DNA of 64,000 nt from Botryllus schlosseri (GCA_051294905.1 CM119371.1:7194001-7258000), one strand, 5' to 3'. Shown: positions 24,266 through 57,081, numbered from the stretch's first letter. Notes: generated from the letters alone by a model not told the origin. Made by a program: numbers and translations.

Positions 24266-25885
24266 ATGGTTCAGATTGTGTGTCGAAATGTAAAGAAACA
24301 TTCAGTGAAGATGATGGAAGAATTACATCGAATGAAGCAAGAAAACGATCATTGTGATTTCATAATTCAAGTAGGAGACGATATCTATTACACTCACAAA
24401 AATGTATTGTCGGCTGGTTGTGCTTATTTCAAAGCGATGTTGAAACACGACACAAAAGAGAGTCGCGAAGGAAAAGTCGTTTTAAAAGAGGTCGATTCTC
24501 AGTGTGTGAAAAACTGCATCGATTTCATATATTCCGGGAAATTTGAGATTCCTGACGAGAAGATAACTAACCTTCTTCATGTCGCAATCATGATGCAGTT
24601 GGAAGATGTGAAACAGGCAGTGTCTGACGTTTTGGAGAGATCAGTTAATGTAGAGAATTACTTTTCCACAAGAAATGTCGCCGATATGTATTATCTGGAT
24701 GCTGTCTCTACGCGATGTGATGTAATTTTTCATAAAAATATCATGGAAATATCAAACCAGTCTGAATATGGAAATATTGAAAAAACTAAGATCCTTAATG
24801 TTGTGAAGTCGGGAAAAACAAAGTTATGCGAAGAAGAAAAACTAACTTTATTGTTCAATTGGGTTGAGAAAAATCGCAACAATCAGGAACATTTGCGAGA
24901 ATGTCTTGAAGCTATCAAGTTTGATGAAGTCCCTCCGGCATTTTTAGAACGTCTTTTGGAATCAAACCTAAATATCAGTAACGACTTCGAATTGTACAAG
25001 TTGATCAATGGACATCTTTTGATAGCTTCAAAGGCATCGCACAAAATGAACGAAGAAATTGGCAATGATGGATTGATAATTCTGTTTGATAATAAAACCG
25101 ATTGTATCCGATCCTTCAATCCAGTAACTGAGAAAGTAGAGAAGTTTCATGATGAGACGTTTCAGAATTTAAGAGATTTCTCAGCGATTTCTTTAGACTC
25201 GTATATCTACGTTTTATGTAAAAATAAATCAGTTCATCGAATCAATTTTCATAGAAAAAATTCAAAATGGGAAAGGATGAAAAATATGATTTGTTACCAT
25301 GGATGGCGTCCTCGCTCGGTTACTTTGTCGGGATCAATATTCATTGTTGGAGGAAGCGATGAAGCAACAAGGGATGTGGAAATGTTTACTTCCCTTGTTA
25401 ATCGATGGATTCAACTAGAAGACAAACCTACAGCGATTTCTGTAACAAGTCTGGTATCATTGAATGATTCCATCTATTGTATCGGAGGTGCAGGACAAGA
25501 TGATGTCATAGTTCCATCATTCTGCAGATTCACTCCAACCTCGTCAAAGTGGGTTGATCTCGATCCAATGAGATACCCTGTTAGTGTCACTGGTGTTGTT
25601 GCAGTTGATCAGAAGATATTTGTGATCGGTGGGGTGAGTAGAGGACAGAAACTAAACAACGTAGAATGTTACGATGTTACTTCAGCTCAATGGACTTCAT
25701 TATCGTCCACGAATGGTCGCCACGGTCGGGTTTCTACATATCACATTGACAAGTGGATTTTTGAAGTCGCAGATGGAGTAATTGCAATTGAAAAGTATGA
25801 TATATTGGAGGACGAATGGACTATAGTGGAACCAAAATTGGATCAATATTGTAACATTTTCACATCCGTACTTGTGAAGAGATAG
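24266..25885 (+). CDS. Intronless BTB-BACK-Kelch (KLHL-like) protein, 539 aa, putative CUL3 substrate adaptor
   Basis: Uninterrupted ORF; BTB motif CDFIIQV..HKNVLSAGCAYFKAML..IDFIYSG; BACK region; kelch blades with GG..Y/F..W; first ATG is 24266 (ORF track starts at TTG 24257). Confidence 0.95.
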   Translation: MVQIVCRNVKKHSVKMMEELHRMKQENDHCDFIIQVGDDIYYTHKNVLSAGCAYFKAMLKHDTKESREGKVVLKEVDSQCVKNCIDFIYSGKFEIPDEKITNLLHVAIMMQLEDVKQAVSDVLERSVNVENYFSTRNVADMYYLDAVSTRCDVIFHKNIMEISNQSEYGNIEKTKILNVVKSGKTKLCEEEKLTLLFNWVEKNRNNQEHLRECLEAIKFDEVPPAFLERLLESNLNISNDFELYKLINGHLLIASKASHKMNEEIGNDGLIILFDNKTDCIRSFNPVTEKVEKFHDETFQNLRDFSAISLDSYIYVLCKNKSVHRINFHRKNSKWERMKNMICYHGWRPRSVTLSGSIFIVGGSDEATRDVEMFTSLVNRWIQLEDKPTAISVTSLVSLNDSIYCIGGAGQDDVIVPSFCRFTPTSSKWVDLDPMRYPVSVTGVVAVDQKIFVIGGVSRGQKLNNVECYDVTSAQWTSLSSTNGRHGRVSTYHIDKWIFEVADGVIAIEKYDILEDEWTIVEPKLDQYCNIFTSVLVKR

Positions 25886-26241
25886 ATTGACACTCACTTG
25901 AGCAGACTCGTATAAATTACTGGATCTTCAAAATACAACTTGACCTAGAACTAGAACCACTTTTCAAAACTGGCTACTAGAACTATAATGACCATGCTTT
26001 AAAAATCCGTAACCAAAGACAATTGAATTGATTCAATTCTGAAGCAACTGCAATAGGTACTGATAATGCAAATTACAGAATTTGAAACGAGCTAAGAAAT
26101 ATATATTGGGGATAGAATCGGCGTTTCAAAACCAACGGGGTTCGGAGTTCGAAATTTGGCATTTTCCGACCGCCCAACACCCACTAGTGGCTACGCCACT
26201 GTTACTAGTGTTAACTCTGAGCTAGCAAGGTCTGCATGAAC

Positions 26242-27538
26242 CAGAGGTGGTCAGTAACGAAGTACTTCTACTTTTTCGAAGTACTCAAGTAGTTTTCCTC
26301 TACTTCTGGTACTTACTCAAGTAGATCTGATTTTCGCTACTTCTACTTCTACTTATTAATATTTGGTGATCTACTTACTTACTTTTCGCTATTTTCAGTT
26401 TGTCAAGTAGAAGTAGTTCAATCTTCCAATCAGGAAGATAGCCTGATGAATTGCGGAGCTGTTTTCACGGAATATTAACATTTAATTTTCATAAAAGTTT
26501 AGTAAAGCACAGAATTTTCGTCGCACTTCGCGCGCAGTTGATACGGAGTGACCGGTATGATTTCACGAAAGTATCGGTGAATATAATTTAGGTGGAAGGT
26601 TGGCGTGGTTCCGTTCACACCACATTGTCGCCCTTCGCCCATATGAAATAATTAATCAAAGTATATATGGCTCATCATAACGTTTGAAACTGATGTTTCG
26701 CAATCTAGCATTTTCTTGTCATATCGTAATCTAGCATATATATCCATGGTGTGTCCTAATCTGGAAGAGTGGACTTTGATTTTCTTTTTTTAGTTTTAGA
26801 GCTGTTTTAGCATGCCACCTTTGAAACTTTCTGGACTAAAAACATGAAATACATATTCTGCTTTTAGAAGTAGTATTTATATTTCACTTTCAATTCCCAG
26901 TATCATATACTTTGAGTTATAATTAATATCAGTTCTTTTGTCCGGATAACATACATGTTGAAGTATAAAAGCAAGTGCAGCAATGCCTTTAATTTCTGGA
27001 AATAAAGCTACACAATATGGCATTTTACGGTCCACCATATTTTTTATCAACGTTTACTAATAGCGCAAAGTGTTTACATCGTATCCTATACAACTTCTCC
27101 GTATTGCTCTTCGACTAAACTACAGACCTTATAATATGGGGGATGGCGCTATACCATGCTATTTTGTAATACCAGATGTTCCAGAAAACAGAGGATTAGT
27201 ATCGCGTTTCCTTATCAATACTATCATTTTCATCCCATGGGGCGGACGAATGATTATGCTATCGAAAATTGGATACCTGCGAGTATGCATCAATATGAAT
27301 CAAGCTCGTCACCTATCACATAGCTCAATTTGTACCTTTTTATAATCCATCCAATCAGAATCGTTTTAACAACTACTTACTTACTTGAGTACTTTTAAAG
27401 TCAGTCAATTCTACTTCTACTTCAAGTAGTTTTAGGTTGCTTATGAAAGAAGTACTTCTACTTGTACTTGAGTAGATATTTTCGTCGCTACTTCTACTTC
27501 TACTTGAGTAGCTTTCTTGACTACTTTGACCACCTCTG
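26242..27538. mobile_element. hAT MITE (CAGAGGTGGTCA ends, TACTTCTAC repeats)
   Basis: TIR cagaggtggtca..tgaccacctctg; perfect TSD gcatgaac at 26234-26241 and 27539-27546. Confidence 0.93.
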
Positions 27539-28355
27539 GCATGAACATCACAAAACAGAAGAACAGCATCGCTATTCATGCCAAACAACGATACTAGTAG
27601 CCTACTACCCACTTTTAAAAACCTGTGGCCAGAGAACTTCTCTTGACCCTCAACCATCTAGATTAGTAGTTTGTTAAGTCGGCAGCTGAAACCATCATAA
27701 TTCAAACATGGCCTTGAATATTGTGCATTTTTTGTTTCCAAGCAGCAGATGTTCATACGTCAGTTTTTCAAGTCTGAACTACTTTTCGGTAGATTCGTAC
27801 CATTTGACGAATGTAATAGCAGTTCTGACCAGCGATTTTGTTGAAATATACTTCATTATTTGTACCACAGTTCATAATCTGCAAGCGATTTTAGTTAATT
27901 CAGCCCACTATCTGTTTAGTCCATTATTCATTCAATATAGATTGGGTCGATGATTTTGACGACTTGTAAAATTGATTCGACAATGGTGACCAATATCAGG
28001 AGTTCGGAAGTTACTAATTACCGGCAGCTGTATAAGCTTTACCCTTCCAATAATTTAGTATGGTATAACCCACAGTACGCAATAACTCCATGCCTGAATA
28101 TTTCATATGAGTGTGGATGATCTCTTCCTTGTTGAGCCGTATACGATCTTTGCTCAAGTTACTCGCTCTTCAGAAGGGCTACTCACAACAGTACGTGCTT
28201 CCGAATAGAACTTGGGTTACAAGTTTATTGGGGTATCGTGCTTTATGAGAATTGTGGATTAACAATGATTATAATATCGGATGAAATATTTGTTTATCTT
28301 GTTATTTTATTGTTTTTAATGAATTTGCATGTGCTGCGTCAAAAACTGTCATTAG

Positions 28356-29176
28356 TAGGGCGGTTTTTTTTTGACATGTCAAAATTTGTCAAAATTTTGT
28401 CAAAATTGTAGCGTTAGGTCAAAATTTGTCAAAATTGTTCATAAAGTCAAAATTTTTTTGACGTCTTTATTTCGTTTGTATCGTAGATTTTGCACTGTCT
28501 GTGAACGTATCATTTGATATTTTACAGCTTGTAGTCTACTTTATAGGCCTACTGTTGTAAACGACGCATTGTCTGCTCATACTGAATCATCAACGGTTAA
28601 TGGTCAACGTACCGCAATATCCTAACTGGGGCATCATTCTTATATTGAGAAGCGCATGATGAAAAATTGTAATAGACAACATTGTCAGAATGAAGCAACA
28701 TGGTGCGTCACCAGTAGTGTATGCACATTGCACAACTTGAGTGTTGTAAGCCAACAACTGCTGCTGTTGAACGTCCTTGGCAAGTAAGGACATGCACTTT
28801 TTACCCAAGAATATAGGAAAGTATCTCTCGTTGTACTACAATTTTTTAAAATTATTTCCACCATAATACGTATTGCAACCACTGGAATTTTTCATAGAGC
28901 CAGATTTCGTTAAAATATTGTTTTTTATATGTACAAAGTTGCCTGTTTCTAAGCCAAAAGCGTTTTTTCAGGCCAAACTACTACGTTGGGACAGCCAGTT
29001 ACAACCGGAAATGTAGATAACTGGTACAATTTTGACATTATTTGGGAAAACACCTAATTTGCATACGTTAGGTCAAAATTTGGTCAAAATTCAGTTTTTT
29101 TAGGTCAAAAAAAGTCAAAATTTTGAATTTTTAGGTCAAAATTTACTTTTTTTTAGGTCAAAAAAAAACCGCCCTA
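28356..29176. mobile_element. hAT MITE (TAGGGCGGTTTTT ends, GTCAAAA repeats)
   Basis: TIR tagggcggttttttt; perfect TSD gtcattag at 28348-28355 and 29177-29184; empty site near 1220. Confidence 0.93.
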
Positions 29177-29704
29177 GTCATTAGTTTTTCGTTATCCATG
29201 ATCAAGATACTAAATTTGTACGCATACTCAACATAAATCATTTCGATTATGTTTTTATGCGGGGCTATCGGCAACTCGTTTTATTCCACACATCCTCTGG
29301 AACGATTGCCACGGTTGAGCAACCTGTGCTGTATACAGATTCATTGATTTTACTTTTCATAACCACTCTTCATTTTGTTACTGGGGATTGCAATCAGAAG
29401 TTCATAATTTATGACGTATCATTTAATGGTCTAGTCGTTGGATGTGAAATGGCTTTGGTGATGAAAGAAGTTTACATGAAAATCCCAACCGATATCAATC
29501 TGTGGGAATCTGACATGCATCAATGTCTGACAATTCTACCCTGTAGATGAAAGTGAGTAATACTGAAATTATCTTTTTGCAAAATCAATGATATCAGATT
29601 CAATTATTTGCCATCAATGCTATAGTGGAGTGTATCGATATGCTAAAATTATTCACAATAAACTCAACTCAACCCACTAGAAACGATTTTATATCTATCT
29701 TTAA

Positions 29705-31788
29705 CACTAGAACTACCGGAACTTCGAACTACCTAGAACTACCATGTGGCTTTTTTGACGCATGTTGAATTTTCTTCGATCAAACGCATTTACCGGAGCT
29801 AAAAATCTGCACAAATCTCAACAAATGGCATCAGAAACCATTGTTTATTGCGCTCATAGCTACTTGCAATATTTTACATACACCTTAGGTCAACACTTAT
29901 AAAACAAATTGCCGTTTTTTGGTGTAACATATAAGTGTTGCTCTGGTGCGCATTTGGTATTTGAGCACGTTCTCTTAAAATTTAGAGTAGGTTCCAGATC
30001 CGCTTTAGCCACATCATCATTGTTAGTTGTTGCTGACATATCATAAAGCTTATCAGATAAGATTTGCATAATTCAATTTTGCAACTAATCCTCGATTTGC
30101 ATATTTTTAGAGTATCGGCATTTTGGCAAGTAGACGATCAATCACATTATAAGAAAACATGCACGGACCATCGTCGACTTGTTGGTACCCTCATAGAATA
30201 CTGCCTTGCAACCTGACCAATAATATCCCCCTGGTTTTGTTTCGTTATATAACATTTAACCGTCACTGGTTTCTTGTTTGTGTTGTTTCTGAAGGAAACA
30301 TACCTCAGGTTGCAGTGAAGTCAATATATATGTGTACAAATTCGATCTCTACACTGGCATCTCGCCGTTACGCATATCAACAAGATGATAGCTTTGAAAA
30401 GTGTGGCTACATGAAGCTGCCTGTGTTCCTTCTGGTCCTGGGTATAGCTTCAAGCAACTTTAGACAATAGTGTCAACTGGGACTTCGTTTGCATCTCCAA
30501 GCGTATACAGCCACATTCACGTAACATTGTTTCGAGATGGATTACATCAGACTCTTCACATTACTATGCTTGGCAAATGTATAGATTATGGAAGAGCTGT
30601 CCTGTCCTATCCTTGCCTAAATATGAGACGCGCTTGTACAGATACTTGGTAGCAGCAGCGTCCGCCATCTGACATTTTCCCCCAATTATTTGCTGGCATT
30701 TCGACCATGTAATAAACGAAAACCATATTATCTTTATCGAATCCACACCTATTTTTACTCCTTATGTCAATAGAAAGCTCATGACTTCCATAAATCTGTT
30801 CTTCGAGATGGCCTGACTAAACATAATGTACCCATTCCCTCAGTCCTCATATGCATTCAATTTACTAGATTCAGCTCACTATCCCCCCGAAGATCCATCT
30901 CGTAGACCGGAGCAAAGGCCCTTTGCCATTGTACAACCCTAGTATATTAGTATGGACAATACAGATGTCGGCTTGGTCTAATGGTACATTTCAAATTTCA
31001 TGTCCTGTAACACGCTGAGCTTCAGAAATATAATATTACAGAGCTTTGGAGACTTGGAACGAGGAAGATCCAGGGCCTTCTATTACAAGGGATGTTGTTG
31101 CTAACACAGTTAGACCGAGTCGATATTAACAAAGTTCTGTTGTTACAAACGGGTTTTCTGCGTTTATCAGATACATAACCATCTTTCAAGAATATTATTA
31201 TTATTATTATTGACATTTTTACAGTGGTGCTTCTCGCCTTTTCCAGGCTATGTGCACCACGACAGTAATTTTGGTAATGTTCATTTCTTTGACTTTGGTA
31301 ATCTTGGGGACGACTTCTTCATTCTTTCTCTCTGTCAATCATCATGCTCTCTCACACCCATGCGTCCCCGTCGTGGTCTTTGCTGCCGACTTGAAGCACG
31401 GCTCACTTTCAGTCTGGGCTTTTCAATGCACTGCAACCGCAGTGAGGTCGGCGATGAGGAGCCCAGAGAAACCTCCGACACATAGAAGTTGGTCCGAACC
31501 GGGATTCGAACCACTACCATTGGTGTCGTGACGCTGGCGATTAACCAACTGCCTGATGCCTGAAGGTGGAAAAAGTGTAATGCGTCAAAAAAGCCACTCG
31601 GTAGTTCTAGGTAGTTCTGTGTATAACTTTTTTATTTGTACTAGATGAGTGATGAAAATCATGGGTAAGGTGGCTTACATAAAATAAATAAAAGTCAAAA
31701 AGTTTCAGCCGAACAGCGTAAGATTTGACTGAATGCCAGCTCTTCAAAAATGAAAATGCGTCAAAAAAGCCACTTGATCGTTCTAGTG
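29705..31788 (-). mobile_element. piggyBac element with decayed transposase
   Basis: TTAA flanks at 29701-29704 and 31789-31792; TIR cactagaac; minus-strand remnants KYLYKRVSYLGKD and YNETKPGDIIGQVARQYSMRVPTSRRWSVHVF match piggyBac motifs YLGK and YNxTKxGVD..YS..TRRWP. Confidence 0.88.
31193..31560 (-). mobile_element. tRNA-derived SINE with (AAT)n tail, inside the piggyBac element
   Basis: Minus strand ggcagttggtt (A box-like) and ggttcgaatccc (B box); (att)n at 31193-31211. Confidence 0.75.
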
Positions 31789-32193
31789 TTAATAACAAGT
31801 CTCAAGACATTGAGTTACTGTAAAATTGGAATTTGAATCGTTTCTAACCCGTTGTATCCTTTCCTTAGCACTGGCAAGGATTTTCTTTCGATCAGATTCA
31901 AGCAAGTTACAACTTTCAAGCAAGTTTACCAATTGTCATTCAAGGTGAGTGTTTTCCGGCTGCGTGTCTTCACTCCACAATTAATATGTACATCGACATT
32001 CTATCCGCATTACACTAACCTGGTCATATATTTTCAGTTTTCAATTTGCTCCTACGCCATAGTTATTATCCCGGTTTGTAGAAACTGATTGAACCGTGCG
32101 TGACTGCTAATAGAATAATCGAGGTTATCGTATGGCTAATAGCTATACTCACCCGTGCTGCTTGTTCTCGAAATTCCATTGAAAACCGTGATA

Positions 32194-33821
32194 TAGGGTT
32201 GTTCGAAAATAACTTTTTTTTTCAAATCTCAATCGCTTAGTCATAAAATTGTCAGGTTGCCTAAAAAAGTGCCAAATTTCAGTAAAAGTAATCTTGAATC
32301 GAAATTTCAACCACTTTTTGAATTTATAGTATTTACGGTGAAAAATTTCGGCACTTCGATATGACCAAATATCGTGTTCCAGGCATGCCTGAAGGGAAAT
32401 TGATGATTTTTACACGGGTGTACATCTTGATAAAGGCATTTGATCAAGTTTGGTGATGAAATTGCTAATGTATGAAAAATGAATATGACACTGGAACTAC
32501 ATTGAAAGAGCCCCGTGAAAACGATAGTGATATACATCGCATATGAATACTTTCAGCACTAAAAATGAATTGCCATGCAGGTGAAATACAGTAAAATATC
32601 ATACTCAGACTAGAGGCGATATCTTTTGTCACACCAGTGTGAATTTCACGTAATCAGAGCAAGTAAGCTTGTGGATAACAGCACTGCGCTATAAAGCGCA
32701 TTGTCATATCCTCATATCACTAGGCTAAATGAAGACAATTGTATAAAAAGACAATGATAAATAATCTGGAGATTATATTTTCATCCGATCAAGACACACA
32801 CAATGCGATAAAACACCATGCGATGTGATGAACACATGGGAGGACGCCGAAAGACGCGCAGTTGCGGTCTCTTAAACTGACATCCACCTCGGCCTAGTGC
32901 CCAATGTCACAGTTCATTTTCAATGTTGATTTTTATGCTTTGGCTCATTCTAGCTCTTCCCATTCCTTGCGAGTGCCTTCTTTCTTCATGTTATTTTTCG
33001 CTACCAAATCGTGAGGATGATATGAAGTGGTTCAGAATAATTATTGATATGATGAAGATATGTCATCATTGTTATCAACCTACTGGTAGCATGACACACA
33101 AGCATCCCATTGTTGGGTGGCATGAGTTCGCTACAGTACATATAAATGGCCTATGATGATGTTGATCCTTCAAAATTCGAAAATAATGCCCGAGCATTCA
33201 TAATTCGACTTGTAGAGGTTTATAGGAGTTGGGAAAAGCAAATATCTTAACGCTTTGCGATGAAAACAGCCACAATGTCGTCAAATCTACATTGGCAACA
33301 TCGCCACGACAAAAGACACTTTCGGGCATTGATATTAACCTGGGAAAAACATTTTGCTGTATTTTATCTGTGCGTCAGTTCATTTTCTCTTCATAGTACC
33401 TGATTTTAGCCTTAAAAGTATTTTATTTCCCAATATATGTCACCATCATTTTGACGAGAATATTTCAATTTTATTGACTCATTTCCAGCAAATCAGTGTC
33501 AAATTAATTTTTCATAAGCTGCCAATTTCATTATCTCAGCTCTATCACAGCCCAGTATCAAGATGTAAACCCGTGAAAAAAGCATCACTATCCCTTCAGG
33601 CATGCCTGGAACACGATATTTGATCATATCGAAGCGTCGATATTTGCCATCGTAAATGCTATAAATTCAAAAATGGCCGAAATTTCTATTTAAAATTGCA
33701 GAGCCTTTACCGGTCGGAATTGACTCCAAAATTGGATGTGTAGCGTTTTTTGTAGCAACCAGACATTTTTATCACTAAGCATGTGAAATACAGAAAAAAA
33801 AGGTATTTTTGTACAACCCTA
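32194..33821. mobile_element. Long-TIR non-autonomous DNA transposon
   Basis: tagggttgttcgaaaataac..gtacaacccta; about 270-bp inverted arms (cgtgttccaggcatgcctgaaggga and its reverse complement); absent from copy A near 2805. Confidence 0.75.
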
Positions 33822-34809
33822 CCGTGCATTCATGCATGTCTCTGTATTCATTAGCAGCTATCGTGGTTGAACTCTTTTATGAGATGGTTAGTTACATCGT
33901 TGTCATGATCAGAAGTTGTGAAAGTAATCAACAAGGCTACCGCACTCAAGTATGAGTAGGAGTAGTGCTGTTTTAAGCAACCCAGAAGTAACCTACCTCG
34001 GGTAGGAGTAGAATTTGCTGTCTTTGAAACTACTGAATTATGTAAGTAGTTTTAAAATCTGTCATAAATACACTCTCGAAACCTAGAAACTGACTGGACG
34101 GTGCGGAGAGCTGGGTTCGTGTTGCTACATCCCAGGAGATCTATTTTACCAGCATGAGGGTTGAAACGTGTCATGTGATAGCCTGTAAACGACACCACTG
34201 CATAAGAACAGTGGCTCTTGACCTCCTTTTTCACCCCAGTTCCCGCTTTCAGAAAATGTGATGGTATGGTGCCCTCAGTCATTTTGCAATGCCTGTAGTG
34301 AATAAGACAATGACCGATGTGGATAAGTTCTACTCGGATACCACATTGGTGTTTTACACTATTAGGTAGGAAACTAAAATGCGGCAGGTCGTATAATTCC
34401 AAACGTTTTGCTGAACTTACCCCTGTTTACCGTGCACTGTAAAAAATAACCGTGGGTTTTGGGGTGGAATAGGAGTGGATAGGAATTATCCACCGTAGGG
34501 TAGGGGTGTACCTTTTTGCTCCACCCCGTTTTAGAGTGAAATAGGCGTGGATTGTTGCTCCTACCCCTGCATTACGGTGGATGACATCCTGCCACCCTGG
34601 ATTAAGCATGGTACGGCGACCCCACCGCTGATCAATTGAGGAAACAAATATGTTTCCGCTGTGATCATTCCAATCACCTGTGGTGTATAGGCTATGTACG
34701 CGCGAGATGCTTGCACGGCGTTGATGTCGCGAGATTGAATGCATATGTGCTCAAAGTCTCTGCTGGTGCAAATCAACATATCGGACGGCCGAACTGACAG
34801 ACATATCAT

Positions 34810-41588: not shown

Positions 41589-41596
41589 GTAATAAT

Positions 41597-42209: not shown

Positions 42210-45045
42210 TTGGCGAATGAGTTGCCTGAAATAATGACGATGTTTGGTAATTTATGTCAGCATGCGAGGCATAATGAACACTTCAATAAACATCGCAAAA
42301 ACCGATATGGTATATAAGAGTGCAGCAGGAATGGGCGTTTGACAAAGATATGGGTTGGTATTGGTAACCGGAGATTGAGCGTTTGATGAAGATTTTCGGG
42401 TAGGATATAGGTTGTTATGCCTTGGATTTACTTTTGTAAATAATATCCCAAGGTTGATATATCCGGATAGGTAAGGGTTATATCCGGATAGGGGTGGTTA
42501 GACCAGTCTACCCTGTGGCGTGGTTGAACCAGTCTACCCTGTGGCGTGGTTTGACTAGTCTACCCTGTGGCGTGGGTAGACCAGTCCACCCTACCCTTCT
42601 GATCATGGGGTGGCATTTTGAACCACCTCTAGGGGTGTGCCCAGTTTTTACAGTGTGATGAAACTGCCATATGAGCAACTAGGCAATCCGAAATTGCTCA
42701 CATGAACCACGCAAACTGCAACATCAACTTTATTGACTGAGACTTTAGTGGAAAGATATTGGTCACCCCATATATTCGAGCAAAGCACGAGAAAACGTCT
42801 GGGCTCTCCGCAAAAGTAGCCCTTGAAATTCTCCGTCTGGGTCATTCTATTAACTCTTATTGGGGGAACATAATACTTCTACTTGACAAACTGTAGGTAA
42901 GTCACGAAACATGACAAAGTAGAATTAAAAGTAGCGGAAAATTTGATTTTGGGCCTACTTCAGTAAATGCTGCAAGTACTGCAAAACGTAGAAGAACTTC
43001 GTTAGTGACCACATCTGTGCAGACTTGGACAACTAGATCAATCTAGTGTTCTAATTCTAATGTGATTTTCCTGAAAAGGATGAACGAGAACTGTATTGCA
43101 TGAAACGATCCAGGCTTGTTGTACAGACAGTTGGCTTTCGTGCTTATGAGATGAACTCTAATTTGATATGAACTGAACTTCATTCAATGTCCAAGTTTTC
43201 GCAAATTCAGTAATTCCAATCTAATTTGGAAAACACTTTTACTGTTTATTTACAATTATAATTGTAATCGAGTTGATGTCACAATTTGCTCTGAATTGCC
43301 CCAAAAAATCTGACCCCCTTTCATTGCAGAGTCCCCCTCGTTCGGGATCGATTTCCGGTCCGACATCCAACTGGTTAAAGGCCGGCCCACCAGGGTGGGT
43401 GGGGTGATACAACAGATAGTGCCCAGGTCCCACCGTTGGTCTGAGTGTTTACAGGAAAAGTCAGTAGATCCCGATGTAAAGAGGTGGGTGACGAATGTGT
43501 CTGGAGGTCGAGGTTATGGTGATTCGACGTTGCTGTTTCCTGAGCAGATATGGTCAAAGTATTTATCATTGGTACTCAAACAGAAGGATAAGCAGTGTCG
43601 TAAATTTTTATTCAGGTAGGCTTACAAATAGTAGAAATTTCCAAATAAGTAAAAACATAAAGTATTGTGGGCCTAGTTGTAAGTGGAAGTAGTTTCAGGT
43701 CTGGTAGATCTTTTTGCGAAATCCCGGGATTTCAATGAAGTTAATTCTGGAATCGGGATCAGAATATAACTTGAAATCCTGTGATTCCAATGCTAGTATG
43801 GACTGACCCCCTACTATTTTACAGGTCAAAGAGGACGGTAATCAACCCAGTCCTGCGCGACATTCCAGAGCGAGTAAGAATGTGGCGGCTCATTCGAACG
43901 AAGAAGTCGTAGAATTCAAACCCCGGACCCCCTCCCTGGTTCACAGGTTGTCACAGCGACGGAATCAGACGACGACAAAAATTCAAATTTGTCGAGGGAG
44001 AACTCATTACGAAAAGCGCTCCCTTCATCATGCCGATATCTAGTGACAGGGCGAATCGCACTGCGGGCCCCAATTTATAATCCGAGTCGGACCCAAAAAT
44101 CAAACAGTTGAACCAAAAAGGCGGAGACGATCCAGACAGACTTGGGCAATTGGATAATTTCAGTTGTCTGTTTTGCCTACTTAGAGCGAAATGCCATTAA
44201 TCTGATTATAATCTAATTTTGGGAATGTTCCACTCTACTTTCCGGTTTTTCTGTAAAGGCTATAGAATAACTGTGTAGTTGGAAACAAGCCAAGCTTGGG
44301 ATACATACATTTGTCATTCTCTTGCTCGTGAGAACGTACGATGATTTGACATGAACTGCCAGGCCTAAACCTACCGTATTGCAGTGACTTAAAAGGAGAT
44401 TGAGGCCGAGTGGTGGGTCATGGCATATATGCAAAATGGTAATTAGGCCACGGCTATGAAAATTACAAAAAGCATTGCTTTTCGCAGATATGTTAATCCT
44501 GACTATTCCCAAAGCCAAAATACGGTCTCTTTCTTGACTTAGGAATAACAGCAATTTAGATTCCACATTCTAACACTTAATATGTACAAATGATTGTACA
44601 GAAGTGTTGCTTATTTTTCTCTAGTTACTACAGCTAGTTTGACATTTTCCTCTGCCTTTGTATTTTGAATAATATTGGGTTGTTGTTTACTGAACCTGAG
44701 TCTTTGGAAAAACGGGTATCTATAAATATATAAATACTAAATTTAAGACACGATTGTGTTCAGGTTAGGTTTCGAATTCAATGTCCCTCTGCCTTTGTCC
44801 TATCTGTTGCTTACAACTGCGTAAGAGTTCTGCGAAATGAATCGGACACAAATGGGTTTGTTACTTGTCTACTGTTTTTAAAAATAAACTGTATTGAAAG
44901 CATGGATGGGTGCAAATAATAATTTTAGTACCCAAAAGGTGTGATGCCTTGAAATACGCCCTGCGCTATGGAGTAAATTGCGAAAACACACCATCTTCGT
45001 TTACAGTGCGTGATGCTGTGAAGTGATGCAGTTTTTTCTATGCAG

Positions 45046-45490
45046 GGACGTGAAGCAGCAATTGAACACATTTGACTGTGGCATTCACGTAATAGCAAAT
45101 GCCTATTGCGTGTCTAACAATTTACCCTTGTCTGAAGATTTTCCGTCGGGATGGTGCCGAGTGTGGGTGGACCACTTAGCAAAGAGTCGGCGACCGTCAC
45201 CTGAGAACCGATTCACATTGAGTGACACAGCCCGATCAAAATGCGCTTCTGTATTGGAAAATTGGTCTACGATATCAGACAGTGATATGCCATACAAAGA
45301 ACTAGCTGATTCCTCATCTGCCATTGCCGTCACGGATAAATCAAGATGGGGTAATTGCGACAGCAGCATATGTCAAGGTAGTAAACACGACGATCAGCAG
45401 ATAATGTGTGTCGAATGTCGGAAATGGTTTCACAAAGTCTTGTCTCGCCGATGAAGATGTTAACGACTGCTTAGCTGCAAAACTTGAATC
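45046..45490 (+). pseudogene. Ulp1/C48 peptidase catalytic-Cys region plus PHD-like finger; frameshifted, probably TE-derived
   Basis: QQLNTFDCGIHVIANA (QxNxxDCG motif); C..C..IMCVECRKWFHK, with a frameshift restoring SCL; preceded by a ttttctatgcag acceptor. Confidence 0.7.
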
Positions 45491-45829: not shown

Positions 45830-46850
45830 TTAGCAGATTATGTCAGTATCAAAGTCATATTCGCCTCAAACTGGTATGGTTAAATTTTTCGCTGCTTCGG
45901 CTACGCTCCGTTTTCCGCTAATTTGGTTCCGCAGCGAACAGATTTTGTCAGTATCATTCGCCTCAAACTCGTATGGTTAACGTTTCCGCTGATTTAGATT
46001 CCGCAGCAAGCAGATTATATCAGTAGGCTATTAAAGTCCTCTCTATAATCGATGGTCAATCTTCCGTCAAATTTGCCTCAAACTCGTATGATTAACTTTT
46101 CCGCTGCCTCGGCTACGATCTGCTTTCCGCTGATTTAGATTCCGCATCCAGCAGATTATGTCAGTATCGAAGTCCTCTCTTTAATCGATGGTCATTCTTC
46201 CGTTAAATTTGCCTCAAACTCGTATGGTTGACTTTTCCGCTGTTTCCGCAGCTTCGGCTACGCTCCGTTTTTCGCTGATTTGGATTCCGCAGCCAGCAGA
46301 TTATGTCAGTATCAAAGTCATATTCGATTCAAACTGGTATGGTTAAATTTCCGCTGTGTCCGCTGCTTCGGCTACGCTCCGTTTTCCGCTGATTTAGATT
46401 CCGCAGCAAGCAGATTATATCAGTATTAAAGTCCTCTCTTTAATCGATGGTCAATCTTCCGTCATATTCGCCTCAAACCGGTATGGTTAACTTTTCCGCT
46501 GTGTCTGCTGCTTCGGCTACGCTCCGTTTTCGGCTAATTTAGATTCCGCAGCGAACAGATTATGTCAGTATCAATTATCAAAGTCCTCTCTTTAATCGAT
46601 GGTCAATCTTCCGTCAAATTTGCCTCAAACTGGTATGGTTAACTTTCCGCTGCTTCGGCTACGCTCCGTCTTCTGATTTAGATTCCGCAGCAAGGAGATT
46701 ACAGCAGTATTGAAGTCCTCTCTTTTATCGACGGTCAATCTTCCGTCAAATTTGCCTCAAACTCGTATGGTTAACTTTTCCGCTGCTTCAACTACGCTCC
46801 GTTTTCCGCTGATTTGGATTCCGCAGCCAGCAGATTATGTCAGTACCAAA
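45830..46850. repeat. Modular minisatellite, about 8 units of 75-150 bp
   Basis: Recurring cagattatgtcagtat, gcctcaaactcgtatggttaa, ttcggctacgctccg and gattccgcagc modules. Confidence 0.9.
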
Positions 46851-48411: not shown

Positions 48412-48658
48412 CAGAGGTGGTTAGAGTAGTCACCGTCGCTACTCAAGTAGAAGTAGAAGTAACGCCGGAATTTCTACTCAGATAGTAGGAGTGATGGTTC
48501 ACGAATAAGTAGGTATTCTACGCTTATTTTTGCCACAAAACTTAAAACTGTCAAGTAGAAAGTAGTCTAAAATCATAACTACTTGAAAAGTAGTGAGTAG
48601 GAAAAATCTACATCAAGTACTTCAAAAAGTAGAAGTACTTCGTTACTGACTACCTCTG
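48412..48658. mobile_element. Short hAT MITE (CAGAGGTGG family)
   Basis: cagaggtggtta..tgactacctctg; perfect TSD acagagac at 48404-48411 and 48659-48666. Confidence 0.9.
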
Positions 48659-51600
48659 ACAGAGACAGAGAGACATTGAATTTTAAGCTTAACATGAACA
48701 CAGTCGTGTCTTAAAGTTGTGTTGATATATTTATAAAAACCTGCCATGGAAAAGCCGCATTTTCCACAAACAACAACTCAATATTATTCGAAACGCTGAG
48801 GCAAAGTGTAGATGTCAAACTGGCTGAAGCAACTAAAACGACACAATCAAAACTTCAGAACAATATTATCCGTACATAGTAGTCCTACCATAAGCATTCG
48901 AATGTGCAATCAAATTGCATATTTTCCCTAAGTCAAGAAAGAGACCGCATTTTGGCTTTGGGAATAGTCAGGATTAACACATCTGCGAAAATCAGTGGTT
49001 CTTGTTGTTTTCATAGCCGTGGCCCAATATCCATTTTGCAAATATGCAAATATCCTTTTAAGCGGCGGCAATACGGCAGGTTTAGGCCTAGCAGTTCATA
49101 TCAAATCACAGCAGGTTCTCATGAGCACGAGAATCGCAAATGTATGTATTGCAAGCTTGGCTCGTTTCGAACTATACAGTTCTTCTGTAACGAAATCTAT
49201 CCAGTTGTCCGAGCCTGTCTGGAAGGCATCTGCCTTTTTGGGTTAATTGTTTGATTTGGTGTCCAGCTTGGATTGTTACTTGGAGCATGCAGTGCGTTTC
49301 GCTCGGTCACTAAATGTCGACAAAGTGATGAGTTCTCCTCGACAAATTTCAAATTTTGTCGGTGTCTGATTTTGTCGTCGTGACAACCTGTGACCCAGGG
49401 ACGGGGATGGGGTCTGGGGTTTGAATTTTACGAATTCTTTGTTTGATTGATCCGCCACATTCTTACTCGCTTTGGAACGTCACGCAGGACAGGGCCGGTT
49501 CGCGCCCTCCTCACTCTGCAAAAAATAGTAGGGTCAGTCAATACCAGTATTGGAATCACAGGATTTTTAAGGTATATTTTTCATCGCGATGCCGGGATTA
49601 ACTTCATTGAAATCCTGGGACTTCGAGAAAGCATCTTTTAGAGCTGAAGTAGTGCTTGCTTTGCTCTTAAAGCGGCGTTACAGAACACTCTACATTGCCG
49701 TGACAACAACACCAACTATGACACAACAATGAACTACACCAGGGTGCTTCAATCTTTTTCGTAATGGTGCACCATTTTACATGTCACTCAAAACTTTCCC
49801 ACCTCAGTTAATCTAATAAATCGAATTCCCGGTGATCATAATTATAGGAAGAGGGATGAAGGCTGCAATCTATCGGAAATGCTAATTCTAAAAACTGATT
49901 AGCGGTTGAGTTATCCTCATCACGTTCTAACATGGTGGTTTTCAATTGGGGTCTACGAAACATTGTCAGGAAACAGCATACCGACTGATAAATATAATTT
50001 GTGATGCTGGAAACTAGGGTGGATCATGTGAAGCAGTTTTGCTTCATAGCTGCGAAAACTTCATGGCTTTCATCAGCCGGACGGCTGTTTGAGACAGGAC
50101 ATCATACTGTGTCAGCTCATTTTAATTGCCAGCAAGCCATTTAGTCAATGGGTAGACCTATTGATGGAAACATTTTGCTGTTTAGAGATGTTGAGGTTTG
50201 TGGCTAAACTGTAAATTTGAATAACAAAGGCCGGAGGATCCATAATTAGAAATCGCGTAAGCGATGATAGTCTCGCTGCTGCCACGATTTTGCGTCGGTA
50301 TTACGATAAATGAATGGGGCTGGCAAGTGTATTTTTCTACATCGCTGATCCCAACCTAAGTCATACACGCAGTTCTTCAAGTAGGTTTTGCCTGCTTCTG
50401 CAGCCACCTCAAGTGGTTCGTTTCCATATTCTTCCACTTATACTTGCTACAGATTTATAAGAAAAACTAGTTGCTTGTTACAATTCGGACAAGTGGAAAG
50501 TGGTTTTGTAATACTTGCAATTCTTACTCGCGGGGTAATGTTTTCAAACTACTTTTCGGCAAAACTAGGCCTAGAATATTTTTCTTTTTTACTCGAATGG
50601 AAATTCACGACGCCACTTCACCTTCTATTTGAGTAACAACAACGAATACTTTCACCAGATCTGCTTCTGAAACAGCGATGTCGGTTCCCCTCAACCCCAA
50701 CCTCCACTCACATTTGTCACCCACCTTTTTACATCGGGATTAACTAACTTTTCCTGTAGGCACCCGGACCGACGGTGGGACTTGGGGCCACCGCTGGTGG
50801 TCTGACCTTTGACCAGTTATGTGGCGGGCCGGAAATCCATCCCGAACGAGGCGGACTCTGGAATAAAATGGGGACAGTTTTTTGGCAACACGAAACAAAT
50901 TGTGACACTGATGTTTTCCAAATTAGAATAGAATTAGAACGATAGCTATACATTTTTCCATATGAGATTAGACTTAGAATTATATCTACTCGGTGTTTTC
51001 CAAATGAGATTAGAATTACAATTATAGCTACTTTTTAAAAAATTAGATTAGAATTAGAATTACTGAGTTCGCGAATGCTTGGACATGGAATGAAGCTCAG
51101 TTCATATTAAATCGCAGAGATCCTTCTCATAAGCATGACAAAGGCATATGTCTGTGTAGCAAGCTTCACGCGATACAGTTCTCCTCTATCATTTTCAGGA
51201 AAGCTAGAACATAGATTAGAAATAATATTAGAGCAAAGAAACATTTCACAATTCATACAAGAAATAGACAATTAAAATTATCTAGTTGTCCGAGTCTGCA
51301 CAGATGTGGTCACTAACAAAGTTTTTCTACGTTTTCGATGTAGGCTACTCGAGTAGTTTTCCTATGCTTGCAACTTATACTGAAATACCTCAAATTTTCC
51401 GCTACTTCAACTTCTCCTTTGTCATATTCAGTGACTTACCTACTCATTTCTATTTACAGTTTGTTAAGTAGAAGTGTTATGCTTCTTCAATAAGAGTTTA
51501 AAGTGACCAAGACGGACAAATTCAGGGGCTGCTTTTGCAGAGAGCCCAGACTTTTTCTCGTGCTTTGCGCAAATATATAGAGTGACCAATATCGTTCCAA

Positions 51601-54342
51601 TGAAGTCCAGGTCAAGAAAATTGATGTTGCAGTTTGTATGGTTCATGTGAGCAATTTCAGGTCGCCTAGTCGCAATTTCATGACATTAAACAGGCATAAA
51701 ATTCATCAAAACGTGTGGAATTATACGACCTGCCGTGTTTCAGTTTCCAACTTGACAGCGCATAACATCAATGTAGTGTCCGAGTAGAACTTAACATCGG
51801 TCATTGTCTCGTTAACTACAGATATTGCAATACGACTGAGGGCACCATACCATCACATTTTCTGAAAGGGGGCACTGATGTGAAAAAGAGGTCAAGAGCC
51901 ACTGTTCTATAGCAATGGCGTCATTTGGAGGCTATCACATTTGAATCCTGATGCTGTTAAAATCGATATCTCCTGGGATGTAGCAACACAAACCCAGCTC
52001 TCTGCACAGTCCGCATACCGTTATGTTAGTTTCTAGGTTTCGAGAGCGTATTTATGAGTGATTTTCAAAACTACCTACATAATTCTGTAGTTTTCAAAGA
52101 CAGCAAATTATACTTCTACCTGAAATTGGCTACTTCTGGGTTGCTTGGAACGGCAATACTCCTACTCATACTCGAGTGAATTATGCATCGCTATTTCTAC
52201 TTGAGTAGCCTTCTTGACTACTTTGGCAGCTTCTGATCCTGCATGCGGAATAGGTTTGTTCAGAAATAACTCTCGAATTCCGGGGATTCACTTATTAAAT
52301 TGTAAGGTTGCCTAAAAAGGCTTCACACCAAATTCGGCTCAATTCCAACCAGCTTAAGCCGCGACAGAGCAAATTCAAGCTTTTTTTCAATTTTTTTTAT
52401 ATATTTTATTGTCAACCCAAGAAAATTGCCGAGTCGCCTAAATGAACGATGCATAACAATTTTTGCTCACTTCGAACCCGTAAAAGCGAATTTATTGCAG
52501 TTGAGAGTTTTGGATTTGCAAAAATAGCATTGATGGTGGGTAAACCCAGAATTATTGATGACAAACCTAAATAACTTCGCTTCTACGGGTTGGAATTGCA
52601 TCGTTTTTGTAGAAAGCTTAACAACTTCATGGGGCTGACAGTGAAATTTGTGTCGGCTTCTACTGGTAGGAATTGAGCCAAATTTCGTGTGCAGCATTTA
52701 ATTTTAATCAGTGAATCCCCGGGATACGGCAAAAGATTATTTTTGGACAACCCTAAAGCATGCAATCGCGGATAGGTATTTTTTGTGACTAGTTCGCGAC
52801 AAGTTACAGACTTTACCACCTCCGAATTTACTGGCAATTAGTGAGCCAGATTTATTGCACATTGTCTTTGTCAGCTCGGAATGAGTAAATGCTGAATGTA
52901 GGAGTCTGTAGGGTGTAAATATATGGTGCATTGATATTAAGGAAGATAACATGTTGATATGAAAATCCATGGCATTTCACTCGATACATTTAAGAGTGGC
53001 ATTGTCTACATAGCGGACAGAATGTTTGCTATATCTTTCTACATTGTCACCAATTCTGGATATGTCACAAAATGACACAGAAACTCACCTGCAGTCGTCA
53101 TGATTTCTGGAAATCTCAATATCGAGATCTTGTCTTTTGGTCAATGACAATGCCTGGAAGAAAATCTGATTATTATACAGCCAAAAAATATACATCAACA
53201 GTAAAATTAAACAGCGGTTCCACCAGCCATCTCGAACTGTATTGAGCACAAATATGTCAGCAAATGCTTTCATTCGGTGTAGAAAATACCTCAGTGTCAA
53301 CATGGGAATGGCTCACCTTGGTTTATGCATACCATCTTTATGACGTTACGGAGACGTCACAATGCGCGTTCATACAATTTAGGAAGATTTGGTTGTTCAT
53401 AAAACCCTGACCTCTGCCCAATTATGTAATTAATCTTCTCATAGAGTTCAACCACGAATGGCACTAATGAATACTCAGGCATACGCGAATGAATGCTTTT
53501 CAACAGGATTTCAAGAACATGCAGCACGGGCGACGATAGCTATTTGCCAAACTTCAATTATATACCATTAGCAGTCATGCATGGTTCAAACAGCTCCTGC
53601 AAACCGGGATAATAACTTCAGACTAGGAGCAAATTGAAAACTAACAACCTCCGGATATGACCTGGTGATTGTTATGCGAATAGAATGTCGATCCTAATTG
53701 TGACTTGAAAATACGCAGCCGAATATAACTCACCTTGAATGGCAATCGGTAAACTTGCTTGAAAGTTGCAACTTCCTTACATCTGATCTAAAGCAAATCC
53801 TTGCCTGTGATGATAAAGAAACGATACATCGGGTTAGAAACGATTCAAATTTGAACTTTACAGTCACAAAATGTGTTGAGGATTGTAGTTACAGATAGAA
53901 ATAGGATCGTTACTAGTGGTTTTGAGTCGAGTTTATTGGTAAAAATTTAATCATTTCGAAATAGCCCACTATAGGATTGATGGCATTGTAAATGGATAAA
54001 TTCAGAATCACTCACTTTTATCTCCGTAGAATTTTCACACATTGATGCATGTCAGATTTCAACTGATTGAGATAGGTTGAGATTGTCTTGCAAACTTCTT
54101 TTATCACTAAAGCCATTTCACATCCAACGACCAGGCCATTAAATAATATTATATAATGTTATATATGATATTCTGATTGCAATCCACTGTAACAAAATGA
54201 ATAATGGTTATGAAAAGTAAAATTGTTGAATTTATATACAGCAACACTCATATGAGAATTCCATGCATTGAGCAGTCCTATCAAGTGCTGTGGGTTATTT
54301 CATACTGAATTACGGGATGTATAAAACTTGAACAGCCTACAG

Positions 54343-55130
54343 CACTGGGTGTCAAACTCAAATTGCGTCGCGGGCCGTATTCAAGCCTACAAATCGCTCT
54401 GGGGCCATACCAGTCAACTGATTGCAAAATGTTACTATGTTCTGTTGCTTTTCACTTGAATACGTTAAAAGCATATATAATAGATAATACACGGCTCAAA
54501 GGGTTTTCAAAGTAGCAAGTAGCAACACCTTTATTCGCAAACAATGGAATTGGCTAAAATACAGTAATTGTCTTCTTGAATATAGTTCAGAACCGCTAAA
54601 ATAGTGGCAGCAACGACGATATAAGTTGGCATATTCTATGCTCCCTTTGATTCAGTCGCAATCTGGCGTTAGCCCTGCATATGCGTTGGAGTTACATACA
54701 TACAAGACATGTAATTGGAAACGCGGACGTTGGAATTTGGTTTAATATTACACCGTAAGTCCGGTTCGTCTCATGTCTGGGGACCTACTGGGTCGAAAGT
54801 GACACACAGTATTGCGTCCATAGATAGGCCTATGTCAAAAAAAAAAAACAAAAAAAAAACAAACAAACTACTTTTTGGTCCTTATTTGTATAAAACTCTG
54901 AATTGGGTGTACCTTCGATTTGTTGTTACTAGTGGTAACTAGAATGAAACGATATTGCCACAGTCGGGTGGTTATAATAGGGCCTATCAACATGGAAGTA
55001 TTTCCTTAAAATAATCTCAACATTCGTTACAATTGTGCTGAATGTAAAAGAAGATTTCAATCTACTCAGCATTGCTTCGCGGGCCGGATGAAATCGTCTA
55101 GCGAGACGGAGATTTGACACCACGGCCCTG
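54343..55130. mobile_element. Charlie-type hAT MITE
   Basis: ggtgtcaaactc..gagatttgacacc; perfect TSD gcctacag at 54335-54342 and 55131-55138. Confidence 0.8.
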
Positions 55131-55452
55131 GCCTACAGTAATCAGTACGTTCAAAACTCCGGAAATTTCAGGACTCAGCTGCAGACTTATACAAACTACC
55201 AATCTAGATGGTTGACGGTAAAGAGTTGCTCAAGTGGCAGATTTTAGAAAAGCAAGTAATTCTAGTGTAGACGTTTGGCATGAATAGTGATACTGATGCT
55301 TCAAAAACCGTCCATTTCGAACTCTCCAATACGTTCCTTTGAAAGGCATATTCTATTACCAACTCAGTAATTTGCGTTACAAATATTGCAATCTTTTGGA
55401 ACTGAAAATCCAGTTTTTGTACCAGTCTGCTCAGGTGAGTCATGAGTGCAAC

Positions 55453-57081
55453 CTATCTCTTCACAAATATGGATCTGTAAATTTGACAACATTCACCTAC
55501 ATTTGGTTTCATTTTGGTCCATTTGTCTTGCGATGTATCATACTTTTCAATTGCATTAGAGGTTTCTAAATCTGTTACTGTGAAAATCCACTTGCCAATG
55601 TGGTAAGCCGAAATTAGAACATGACAAGCATTCATAGAAGATAATGAAGTCCACTGAGCTGAAGTAGCATCGTAACATTCCACGCTGTCAACATTGATTC
55701 CTCCACTCTCCCCACCGATTACAATTATCTTCTGATCAACTGCAACAACACCACTCCCCCACACAGGATATCTCATTGGGGCGAGATCAACCCACTCTGA
55801 TGAAGATGGAGTGAATCTGCAGAATGATGAAACTCTGACACCATCTTGTCCTATACCTCCGATACAATAGATGGAATCATTCAATGATACCAGACTTGTT
55901 GATCGAATCGCGGTAGGTTTGTCTTTTAGCTGAAACCATCGATTCGCAGGAGAAGTAAATATTTCCACATCACTTGTTGCTTTAAAACCACTTCCTCCAA
56001 CAACGAATATCGATCCTGACAAAGACAGTGAGCGAGGATAGTATCCATGGTCACAAATCATATCTTTCATCCTTTCCCATTTTGAATTTTTGCACTGAAA
56101 ATTGAGTCGATAGACTGATTTATTGCCACATAAAACGTAGATGTAGCAGTCTAGAGAAATCGCCGAAAAATCGATTAAATTCGGAAAAATCTCATTATGA
56201 AAATTCTTTACCTTCCCACTTGCTGGATTGAAGGATCTGGTATACTTTGTATTGGAATCGAAAAGAATTATCAATTCATCATTGCCAATTTCTTCGTTCA
56301 TTTTGTGCGATGCTTTTGGAGCTTCTAAAAGATGTCCATTGATCAACTTGTACAATCCGAAGTCGTTACTGATAATTGGGTTTGATTTCAGAAGACTTTC
56401 TAAAAATGCCGTAGAGACTTTATCAAACTTGATTGCTTCAAGACATTCTCGCAAATGTTCCTGATTGTTGCGATTTTTCTCAACCCAATTGCACAATAAA
56501 GTTAATTTTTCTTCGTCGCATAACTTTGATTTTTCCGACATCACAAATTTGAGGATGTTAGCTTTTTCAATATTTCCAAATTCAGGTTGGTTTGATATTT
56601 CCAAGATATTTTCATAAAAAAACTCTCTACATCGTGCAGAGACGGCATCCAGCCCATACATATCGGCGACATTTCTTGTGGAAAAGTAATTCTTTACATC
56701 AACTGATTCCTCCAATACGTCAGATACTGCCTGTTTCACGTCTTCCAACTGCATCATGACTGCGACATGTAGAAGATTATTTATCTTTTCATCAGGAATC
56801 TCAAATTTGGCAGAATATATGAAATCGATGCAGTTTTTCACACACTGAGAATCGACCTCCTTCAGAACGACTTTTCCTTCACGACTCTCTTTACTGTCGT
56901 GTTTCAACATCGCTTTGAAATAAGCACAACCAGCCGACAATACATTTTTGTGAGTGTAATAGACATCATCTCCCACTTGAATTATGAAATCACAATGATC
57001 GTTTTCTTGCTTCATTCGATGTAATTCTTCCATCATCTTCACTGAATGTTTCTCTGCATTTCGACATACAATCTGCACCAT
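55453..57081 (-). CDS. Intronless BTB-BACK-Kelch (KLHL-like) protein, 542 aa, paralog of 24266-25885
   Basis: Uninterrupted ORF with the same architecture; first ATG at 57081; BTB nearly identical to the + strand copy. Confidence 0.95.
   Translation of the reverse strand: MVQIVCRNAEKHSVKMMEELHRMKQENDHCDFIIQVGDDVYYTHKNVLSAGCAYFKAMLKHDSKESREGKVVLKEVDSQCVKNCIDFIYSAKFEIPDEKINNLLHVAVMMQLEDVKQAVSDVLEESVDVKNYFSTRNVADMYGLDAVSARCREFFYENILEISNQPEFGNIEKANILKFVMSEKSKLCDEEKLTLLCNWVEKNRNNQEHLRECLEAIKFDKVSTAFLESLLKSNPIISNDFGLYKLINGHLLEAPKASHKMNEEIGNDELIILFDSNTKYTRSFNPASGKVKNFHNEIFPNLIDFSAISLDCYIYVLCGNKSVYRLNFQCKNSKWERMKDMICDHGYYPRSLSLSGSIFVVGGSGFKATSDVEIFTSPANRWFQLKDKPTAIRSTSLVSLNDSIYCIGGIGQDGVRVSSFCRFTPSSSEWVDLAPMRYPVWGSGVVAVDQKIIVIGGESGGINVDSVECYDATSAQWTSLSSMNACHVLISAYHIGKWIFTVTDLETSNAIEKYDTSQDKWTKMKPNVGECCQIYRSIFVKR

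Follow-up and report, generated by a model that had tools for sequence, protein, structure and literature searches.

A tandem family of intronless BTB-BACK-Kelch genes with a near-constant BTB domain and a variable predicted substrate face in Botryllus schlosseri

The 64,000-nucleotide stretch of Botryllus schlosseri DNA analysed in this study (hereafter the window; C1:7194001-7258000 of a 495.5-Mb assembly, GCA_051294905.1 CM119371.1, with a G+C content of approximately 0.39) contains only two long open reading frames (ORFs), genes A and B, which lie at the two ends of the span 24266-57081 and which an initial annotation had already read as KLHL-type genes. Both ORFs proved to be uninterrupted and intronless, and both encode an N-terminal BTB/POZ domain, a BACK domain and a C-terminal six-bladed kelch propeller, the order known from ubiquitin-ligase adaptors, with Pfam scores well above the curated cut-offs for A (BTB, PF00651, E 2.7e-20; BACK, PF07707, 1.8e-12; Kelch_1, 5.2e-23) as well as for B (5.4e-21, 1.8e-13 and 7.5e-26, respectively). 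Their coordinates and those of their domains are given in Table 1. No third family copy was found within the window by tblastn, and the 29.5 kb between A and B hold none.

The two proteins are 76% identical with three gap positions (BLASTP), and their differences are very unevenly distributed: eight fall in codons 1-125, 28 in codons 126-240 (BACK), eight in codons 241-280 and 82 in the 259 aligned kelch codons from 281 to the end. The by-eye count of the initial annotation, 7 differences in the BTB part versus about 90 in the propeller, was thus close, while the divergence of the BACK domain (28 differences, omega, i.e., the ratio of nonsynonymous to synonymous divergence dN/dS, of 0.89) had been absent from it. 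All motif pairs quoted there are present in the A/B alignment (HGWRP/HGYYP, GGSD-E/GGSGFK, TAISVT/TAIRST, PVSVTG/PVWGSG, GGVSRGQKLNN/GGESGGINVDS, GRHGRV/ACHVLI and AD--GVI/TDLETSN), and the core quoted as unchanged, TSLVSLNDSIYCIGG, is identical in both genes. For this pair dS is the same in both parts (0.30 in BTB, 0.31 in kelch), whereas dN rises from 0.032 in BTB, where omega is 0.10, to 0.183 in kelch.

Genes A and B belong to a family for which all our counts are lower bounds. A six-frame search of the genome with A gave 531 first-look candidates, of which the best 80 were scored, and all 80 are near full-length matches with E <1e-200. At least 52 of these places, 72-100% identical, form the main array at C1:6.59-7.55 Mb with an average of one copy per 19 kb; its copies are mostly on the minus strand, gene A lying within a run of three plus-strand copies. 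Intact ORFs of 536-551 codons could be extracted from 45 of the 52 places, and the remaining seven are damaged by stops, truncation or partial loss. In addition, a second search with a 59%-identical member as query uncovered at least 20 further places, mainly in a second array at C1:13.8-15.7 Mb, so that both searches combined yield at least 100 full-length places in the genome, including small groups on C3, C4, C5, C14 and C16. In two very large protein collections, the closest proteins from outside this genome (P0003-P0005, without names) are 52, 46 and 43% identical, and the nearest named relatives, 'kelch-like protein 7' (P0006, 546 aa) and 'kelch-like protein 12' (P0014, 548 aa) of the sea squirt Styela clava, are collinear over their full length and of similar size, yet only approximately 30% identical, and their names are automatic. 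With at least 52 copies in 1 Mb and the nearest outside protein at 52% identity, the main array is a large lineage-specific tandem expansion, and its seven broken or truncated copies together with recent duplicates show birth-and-death turnover. The intronless birth-and-death family proposed initially from two genes is therefore borne out, on a much larger scale than was then visible.

The contrast between a constant BTB domain and a variable propeller, first noticed in the A/B pair, is far beyond chance and holds throughout the array. Nei-Gojobori estimates for the 946 pairs that can be formed from 44 array copies, after one member of an identical pair had been left out, gave median dS and dN values of 0.269 and 0.042 for BTB, 0.301 and 0.113 for BACK, and 0.278 and 0.146 for kelch. 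Likewise, when separate trees were computed for the individual segments, their lengths in synonymous units were 11.3 for BTB, 12.0 for BACK, 12.3 for the linker and 13.2-16.4 for the kelch segments. Array-wide omega is 0.21 for BTB and 0.48 for BACK. Since silent divergence shows the BTB domain to be no younger than the other parts of the gene, we attribute its constancy to purifying selection (omega 0.10-0.21).

Positive selection was analysed by Goldman-Yang-type codon site models with F3x4 frequencies, run on FastTree topologies without bootstraps whose branch lengths were multiplied by one fitted scale; the paralog tree is star-like with short internal branches. The likelihoods come from our own code with fixed FastTree branch lengths, and P-values attached to the likelihood-ratio test statistics (LRT) given here are therefore approximate. 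Under the one-ratio model M0, omega is 0.34 for codons 1-260 and 0.57 for codons 261-539. Comparison of M1a with M2a gave an LRT of 56 for codons 1-260, with 1.9% of sites at omega 3.9 (codons 7, 204 and 211), whereas in codons 261-539 the LRT rose to 516 and 6.2% of sites were placed at omega 5.0. The M7 versus M8 comparison, proposed in the initial annotation as the check for diversifying selection, yielded an LRT of 519 for the kelch half, where omega was 4.4 for 6.6% of sites. Sixteen kelch codons reached a posterior above 0.9 (277, 300, 319, 347, 348, 365, 393, 409, 415, 441, 457, 460, 461, 488, 504 and 530); two further selected sites, codons 204 and 211, lie in BACK. The BTB segment on its own gave an LRT of 12.5 with the single site being codon 7, which precedes the domain; positive selection is thus found in the presumed substrate-binding and not in the presumed cullin-binding domain.

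The location of these sites was examined on an AlphaFold2 model of A, for which 56 relatives had been aligned (mean predicted local distance difference test score, pLDDT, 90.4). The model comprises the BTB domain, a helical BACK region (residues 132-261), a disordered linker (258-267) and a propeller whose 24 strands form six blades of four, with blade I closed by the C-terminal strand. Its top Foldseek matches are the full-length KBTBD2-CUL3 and KLHL22-CUL3 structures (E ~1e-32 to 1e-29), and the KLHL12 kelch domain matches with a target-normalised template-modelling (TM) score of 0.84. The B-C and D-A loops form the substrate face of kelch propellers. Residues were assigned to classes from the model strand order before the site locations were seen, which placed 45 residues in B-C loops and 61 in D-A loops (106 in the top loops altogether), 39 in the bottom A-B and C-D loops and 125 in strands; the top-face assignment rests on this strand order, on the alignment with KEAP1 and on the textbook assignment of the loops. 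All 16 selected sites lie within the 106 top-loop residues and none among the other 164 residues of the propeller (hypergeometric P 1.5e-7). Each of the twelve B-C and D-A loops carries between one and four of them. Variation at single positions is extreme, with 14, 13 and 15 kinds of residue among the 44 paralogs at codons 347, 348 and 461, respectively, while H345, G346 and P349, which flank the codon pair 347-348, are invariant; the posterior for omega >1 is 1.0 at both codons of the pair.

Furthermore, the phmmer alignment with a KEAP1 chain (chain index minus 7 giving the usual numbering) places codon 393 at G509 beside S508, codon 409 at Y525, codon 441 at A556 beside S555, codon 457 at Y572 and codon 462 at F577, and codon 488 lies two residues past the position aligned with S602. 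The matched KEAP1 residues are named as Nrf2- and ligand-pocket residues in the available text of PMC6891428. That all 16 selected sites are in top-face loops and that five codons align with the KEAP1 pocket bears only indirectly on a putative binding of substrate at this face. That the loops vary because of local hypermutation at a mutational hot spot was rejected, since dS in the top loops (0.308) is close to that in the rest of the propeller (0.253).

The pattern recurs in the second array. In a sample of 23 genes from it, 56-96% identical to each other, the N-terminal half gave an LRT of 0 and the kelch half an LRT of 44. The selected sites 347, 409, 462, 488 and 530 are all in top loops, and four of them are among the 16 of the first array. 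When those 16 positions were evaluated as a set in the second array, omega was 1.78 and thus significantly above 1 (LRT 41 against omega = 1), compared with 0.57 for the other top-loop sites and 0.28 for the rest of the propeller.

Overall, we consider A and B to be members of a lineage-specific tandem BTB-BACK-Kelch family of putative CUL3 receptors with a target-driven variable face, a reading to which we assign a probability of roughly 0.7. As the architecture suggests, the near-constant BTB domain together with BACK would dimerise and dock on CUL3, while the ubiquitination target would be bound by the top face of the propeller, which consists of the B-C and D-A loops. The driver of the variation could be fast-changing targets, e.g., proteins of viruses, of other parasites or of selfish elements, and the array may act as a germline repertoire of degradation receptors. 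The initial annotation had staked its proposal of a diversifying adaptor family on two outcomes, namely loop dN/dS at or below 1 with changes spread evenly over the propeller, or BTB dS near zero relative to kelch; sites with omega well above 1 do exist, they are concentrated in the top-face loops, and BTB dS equals that of kelch, and the proposal is supported.

Several points weigh against this reading. In the BTB domain, residues T63-K64-E65 of A stand at the phi-X-(D/E) position, aligned with L-R-E of KEAP1, which the available text of PMC6484134 describes as the CUL3-contact motif in the alpha3-beta4 loop, and here phi is Thr in 42 and Ser in two of the 44 copies instead of a hydrophobic residue. 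The BACK domain, too, is fairly free (omega 0.48), so that the propeller is not the sole variable part. The loops as a whole do not show an excess of nonsynonymous change: model-free dN/dS is 0.84 for the top loops, hence below 1, versus 0.30 for the rest of the propeller, and class omega is 1.18 for the B-C loops, 0.47 for the D-A loops, 0.45 for the bottom loops and 0.41 for the strands. Given these class averages, the excess over 1 resides in particular positions and not in whole loops, so that of the initial claim of loop diversification the concentration of selected sites (16 of 16) stands, while the excess itself is limited to individual sites and the B-C loops. The posteriors moreover are naive empirical Bayes values from code of our own, recombination among the paralogs is demonstrable and can inflate site-model tests, and even the segments of 55-71 codons analysed separately (see below) may still be mosaics. 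Finally, when four RNA runs with the same species label were mapped at 97% likeness to positions 19000-31000 of the window, which include gene A only, using 6-13% of each run, the depth over gene A was 0 in three runs and 0.15-0.99 in three bins of the fourth (X13). Nearly all of the mapped reads lay in part on repeats flanking the gene. Tissues and conditions of these runs are unspecified, and the result neither demonstrates silence of gene A nor supports its activity.

As to the selective agent, the boldest form of the CUL3-receptor reading is that approximately 100 putative receptors with distinct pockets, kept diverse by selection and reshuffled by conversion, would recognise and destroy proteins of viruses or other intracellular parasites. 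We regard this as speculative and, on the present data, unlikely. If true, the invertebrates most closely related to vertebrates would possess a system of innate recognition that works through ubiquitin; to our knowledge, the kelch fold has not previously been implicated in innate recognition of foreign proteins. The same CUL3-receptor mechanism might instead be directed at the animal's own proteins or at germline conflicts, with a fast-changing host family, gamete or self-incompatibility factors or selfish elements as targets, and this alternative, though unlikely, is more probable than the others discussed below. Positive selection alone does not identify the opponent, the near absence of gene A reads from four bulk RNA runs would suit expression in a narrow tissue such as the germline, and the region is rich in transposon-like repeats; on the other side, comparable adaptor families, the nematode MATH-BTB and F-box proteins (PMC4334554) and the fish finTRIM proteins (PMC2657112), are read as anti-pathogen in the available text of these sources.

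It is also conceivable that the proteins are not ubiquitin-ligase adaptors at all, in which case BTB would only oligomerise and the propeller would serve as a stoichiometric binder, scaffold or inhibitor. Some kelch proteins bind actin, which provides a model for such a role, and the Thr or Ser found at the phi position in 44 of 44 copies would fit with it. We nevertheless consider it improbable, since the Glu of the same motif is invariant in all 44 copies, BTB and BACK are under strong constraint (omega 0.21 and 0.48), and CUL3-bound adaptors are the structures that match best over the full length. The same genome carries a CUL3 orthologue, on C14. In the same cullin search, a cullin-family match at C16:7991915-7992472 was found inside a stop-free open frame of 797 codons, and this locus has the appearance of a cullin-like gene without introns, in contrast to the CUL1-4 genes, which have several exons.

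An artefactual origin of omega >1, through recombination, misalignment beside loop indels or the simplified code, with loops that are merely unconstrained (omega ~1), was likewise considered. The paralogs do exchange segments by gene conversion: copies L012 and L019, which lie 490 kb from each other, differ at 17 nucleotides within codons 1-124 and are identical over codons 125-542, and conversion tracts are also seen in BACK (L004/L007) and at the C-terminus (L011/L029). Mosaic paralogs thus exist, sites 365, 460-462 and 504 adjoin indels, and the loop-class mean of dN/dS is below 1. Yet the signal holds when separate trees are used for seven segments, with LRT values of 130, 34, 77 and 43 for the four kelch segments and weak values of 12-17 for the others. 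It also holds under synonymous-rate variation, where a grid analysis keeps the core sites at beta 3-10 versus alpha 0.6-1.6; the prior of this grid is heavy and produces a longer list of weak sites that is to be ignored. Sites 300, 319, 347, 348, 393, 409, 415, 441, 457, 488 and 530 lie in ungapped columns with invariant flanks, the same sites recur in the independent set of 23 genes, in which the choice made on the first array retains its elevated omega, and the M2a null already permits omega = 1. An artefact is for these reasons very improbable.

Such exchanges affect other parts of the gene besides BTB, and the average dS of BTB is not reduced by them. The weakest alternative, raised in the initial annotation, that gene conversion keeps BTB uniform while the remainder drifts, has one unambiguous BTB-limited exchange (L012/L019) in its favour and is scarcely credible as the general cause, since BTB dS is not near zero and equals kelch dS both across the 946 pairs and between A and B, and tracts occur also in BACK and the C-terminal blades.

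Comparison with known systems helps to place the family. KEAP1, KLHL12, KLHL22 and KBTBD2 share the three-domain order and the fold with A and B; however, such vertebrate BTB-BACK-Kelch adaptors are single conserved genes, whereas at least 100 intronless copies in tandem arrays are found here, with at most approximately 30% identity over the matched parts, a hypervariable pocket and Thr at the phi position. Closer in their evolution are the large and rapidly turning-over MATH-BTB and F-box families of nematodes, in which, according to the available text of PMC4334554 (summarising Thomas 2006), positive selection acts in the substrate-binding and not in the cullin-binding domain, the same selection pattern as measured here, and for which a role against foreign proteins is a hypothesis as well. 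These families use a MATH or FTH/FBA binding module and belong to a different phylum, while the present genes use a kelch propeller; no kelch-based case is mentioned in the available text of that source. Teleost finTRIM genes are similarly an E3-ligase multigene family shaped by duplication and by positive selection in the ligand-binding domain (PMC2657112, available text), and an antiviral role has been tested for some members (PMC5445110, available text), but they encode RING-type ligases with a B30.2 domain and not cullin adaptors. Poxvirus BTB-Kelch proteins such as vaccinia A55 are intronless and present in several copies, and dock on CUL3 via their phi-X-(D/E) motif (PMC6484134, available text). 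They subvert a host ligase, whereas the present genes lie in chromosomal arrays and have sea-squirt proteins as nearest named relatives. In the literature searched, the coverage of which was incomplete so that novelty is unproven, we found no description of a positively selected BTB-Kelch array in tunicates or any other animals. The family is set apart from these known ones by its variable kelch propeller, its tunicate-type chordate host and the involvement of every substrate-face loop.

A constant adaptor combined with a variable binder is one of the few genomic signatures that point to an unseen host-parasite or intragenomic conflict, and the array is a kelch-propeller version of this signature in a chordate lineage without adaptive immunity. 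With one to four sites for mutation already located in each of the 12 top-face loops, there is a direct route to what these putative receptors recognise. Moreover, the array is a natural library of kelch-pocket re-specification, which bears on degrader design using KEAP1- or KLHL-type receptors. Should the genes be silent or their products not bind CUL3, the finding would be reduced to an evolutionary curiosity.

Table 1 Genes A and B in the window with their domains, the most variable codon pair and the conserved upstream elements (positions counted from the first nucleotide of the window).
Feature	Position	Strand	Basis or remark
Gene A, intronless BTB-BACK-Kelch ORF	24266..25885	+	539 codons from Met plus stop; ORF, translation, Pfam
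BTB domain of A (codons 22-125), presumably for dimerisation and CUL3 docking	24329..24640	+	Pfam
BACK domain of A, codons 134-231	24665..24958	+	Pfam
Six-bladed kelch propeller of A, codons 269-538	25070..25879	+	Model strand pattern; Foldseek
Codons 347-348 of A, the pair with the highest variability, in the D-A loop from blade II to blade III	25304..25309	+	Paralog alignment, site model
Conserved 90-nt upstream element of A, putative leader or core promoter	24176..24265	+	Common to array copies
Gene B, intronless BTB-BACK-Kelch ORF	55453..57081	-	542 codons plus stop; ORF, translation, Pfam; 76% identical to A
BTB domain of B, codons 22-125	56707..57018	-	Pfam
Kelch propeller of B, approximately codons 269-541	55459..56277	-	Pfam Kelch_1; alignment to A
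Conserved 90-nt upstream element of B (copy L026), putative leader	57082..57171	-	Same element as upstream of A

Regarding the mode of duplication, copies have approximately 90-185 nt upstream and 30-140 nt downstream in common, and for some pairs more than 1.4 kb. An origin as retrocopies was rejected, as flanking DNA is shared among the copies; with flanks shared on both sides, the copies are DNA-level duplications. Two copies 145 kb apart, L040 (C1:6707045-6708655) and L041 (C1:6851882-6853492), are identical over 1,608 coding nt, and three further pairs are near-identical at 98-99%; such near-identical pairs lie 200-730 kb apart and are not adjacent. Such distances suggest that copies are duplicated or exchanged over long range within the array, or else that the assembly contains a duplication.

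The proximal 90 nt upstream have a median pairwise p-distance of 0.152 among 30 copies, which is below the synonymous level, and beyond -90 most copy pairs no longer align (0.51). Approximately 30 nt before the ATG this element contains a TATA-like run, and approximately 70 nt before the ATG a pyrimidine-rich stretch that ends in AG. We read it as a candidate core promoter or leader that the copies have in common; with these features, an acceptor site for splicing or trans-splicing would also be conceivable.

The other ORFs of the window have no Pfam match except for a weak fragment of an Ulp1 protease, an ORF fragment at 45014-45451 (+) that matches the Ulp1 protease C-terminal domain with E 1.3e-4 and is probably transposon debris; tandem repeats of 132-259 nt at 45983-46850 adjoin it. 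Direct and inverted matches of 100-230 nt with 76-89% identity connect positions 1-10000 with 28000-34500, 42600-44900 and 48700-54200, and by their sequence these intergenic matches would be copies of repeat families or remnants of an old duplication unit. A nested inverted repeat at 60932-63199, with arms of 152-314 nt at 76-93% complementarity and a core of approximately 940 nt, looks like a foldback transposon or one of the miniature inverted-repeat transposable element (MITE) type.

Beside gene A, RNA reads pile up at 19000-19400 and 26218-27821 to a depth of up to ~36, and because 97-98% of them fit only partly, we take these to be transcribed dispersed repeats and not local genes. Lastly, a degenerate interstitial telomere-like tract of CCTAA/CCCTAA units is located at 21948-22060, from which RNA reads of run X16 extend into clean TAACCC repeats.

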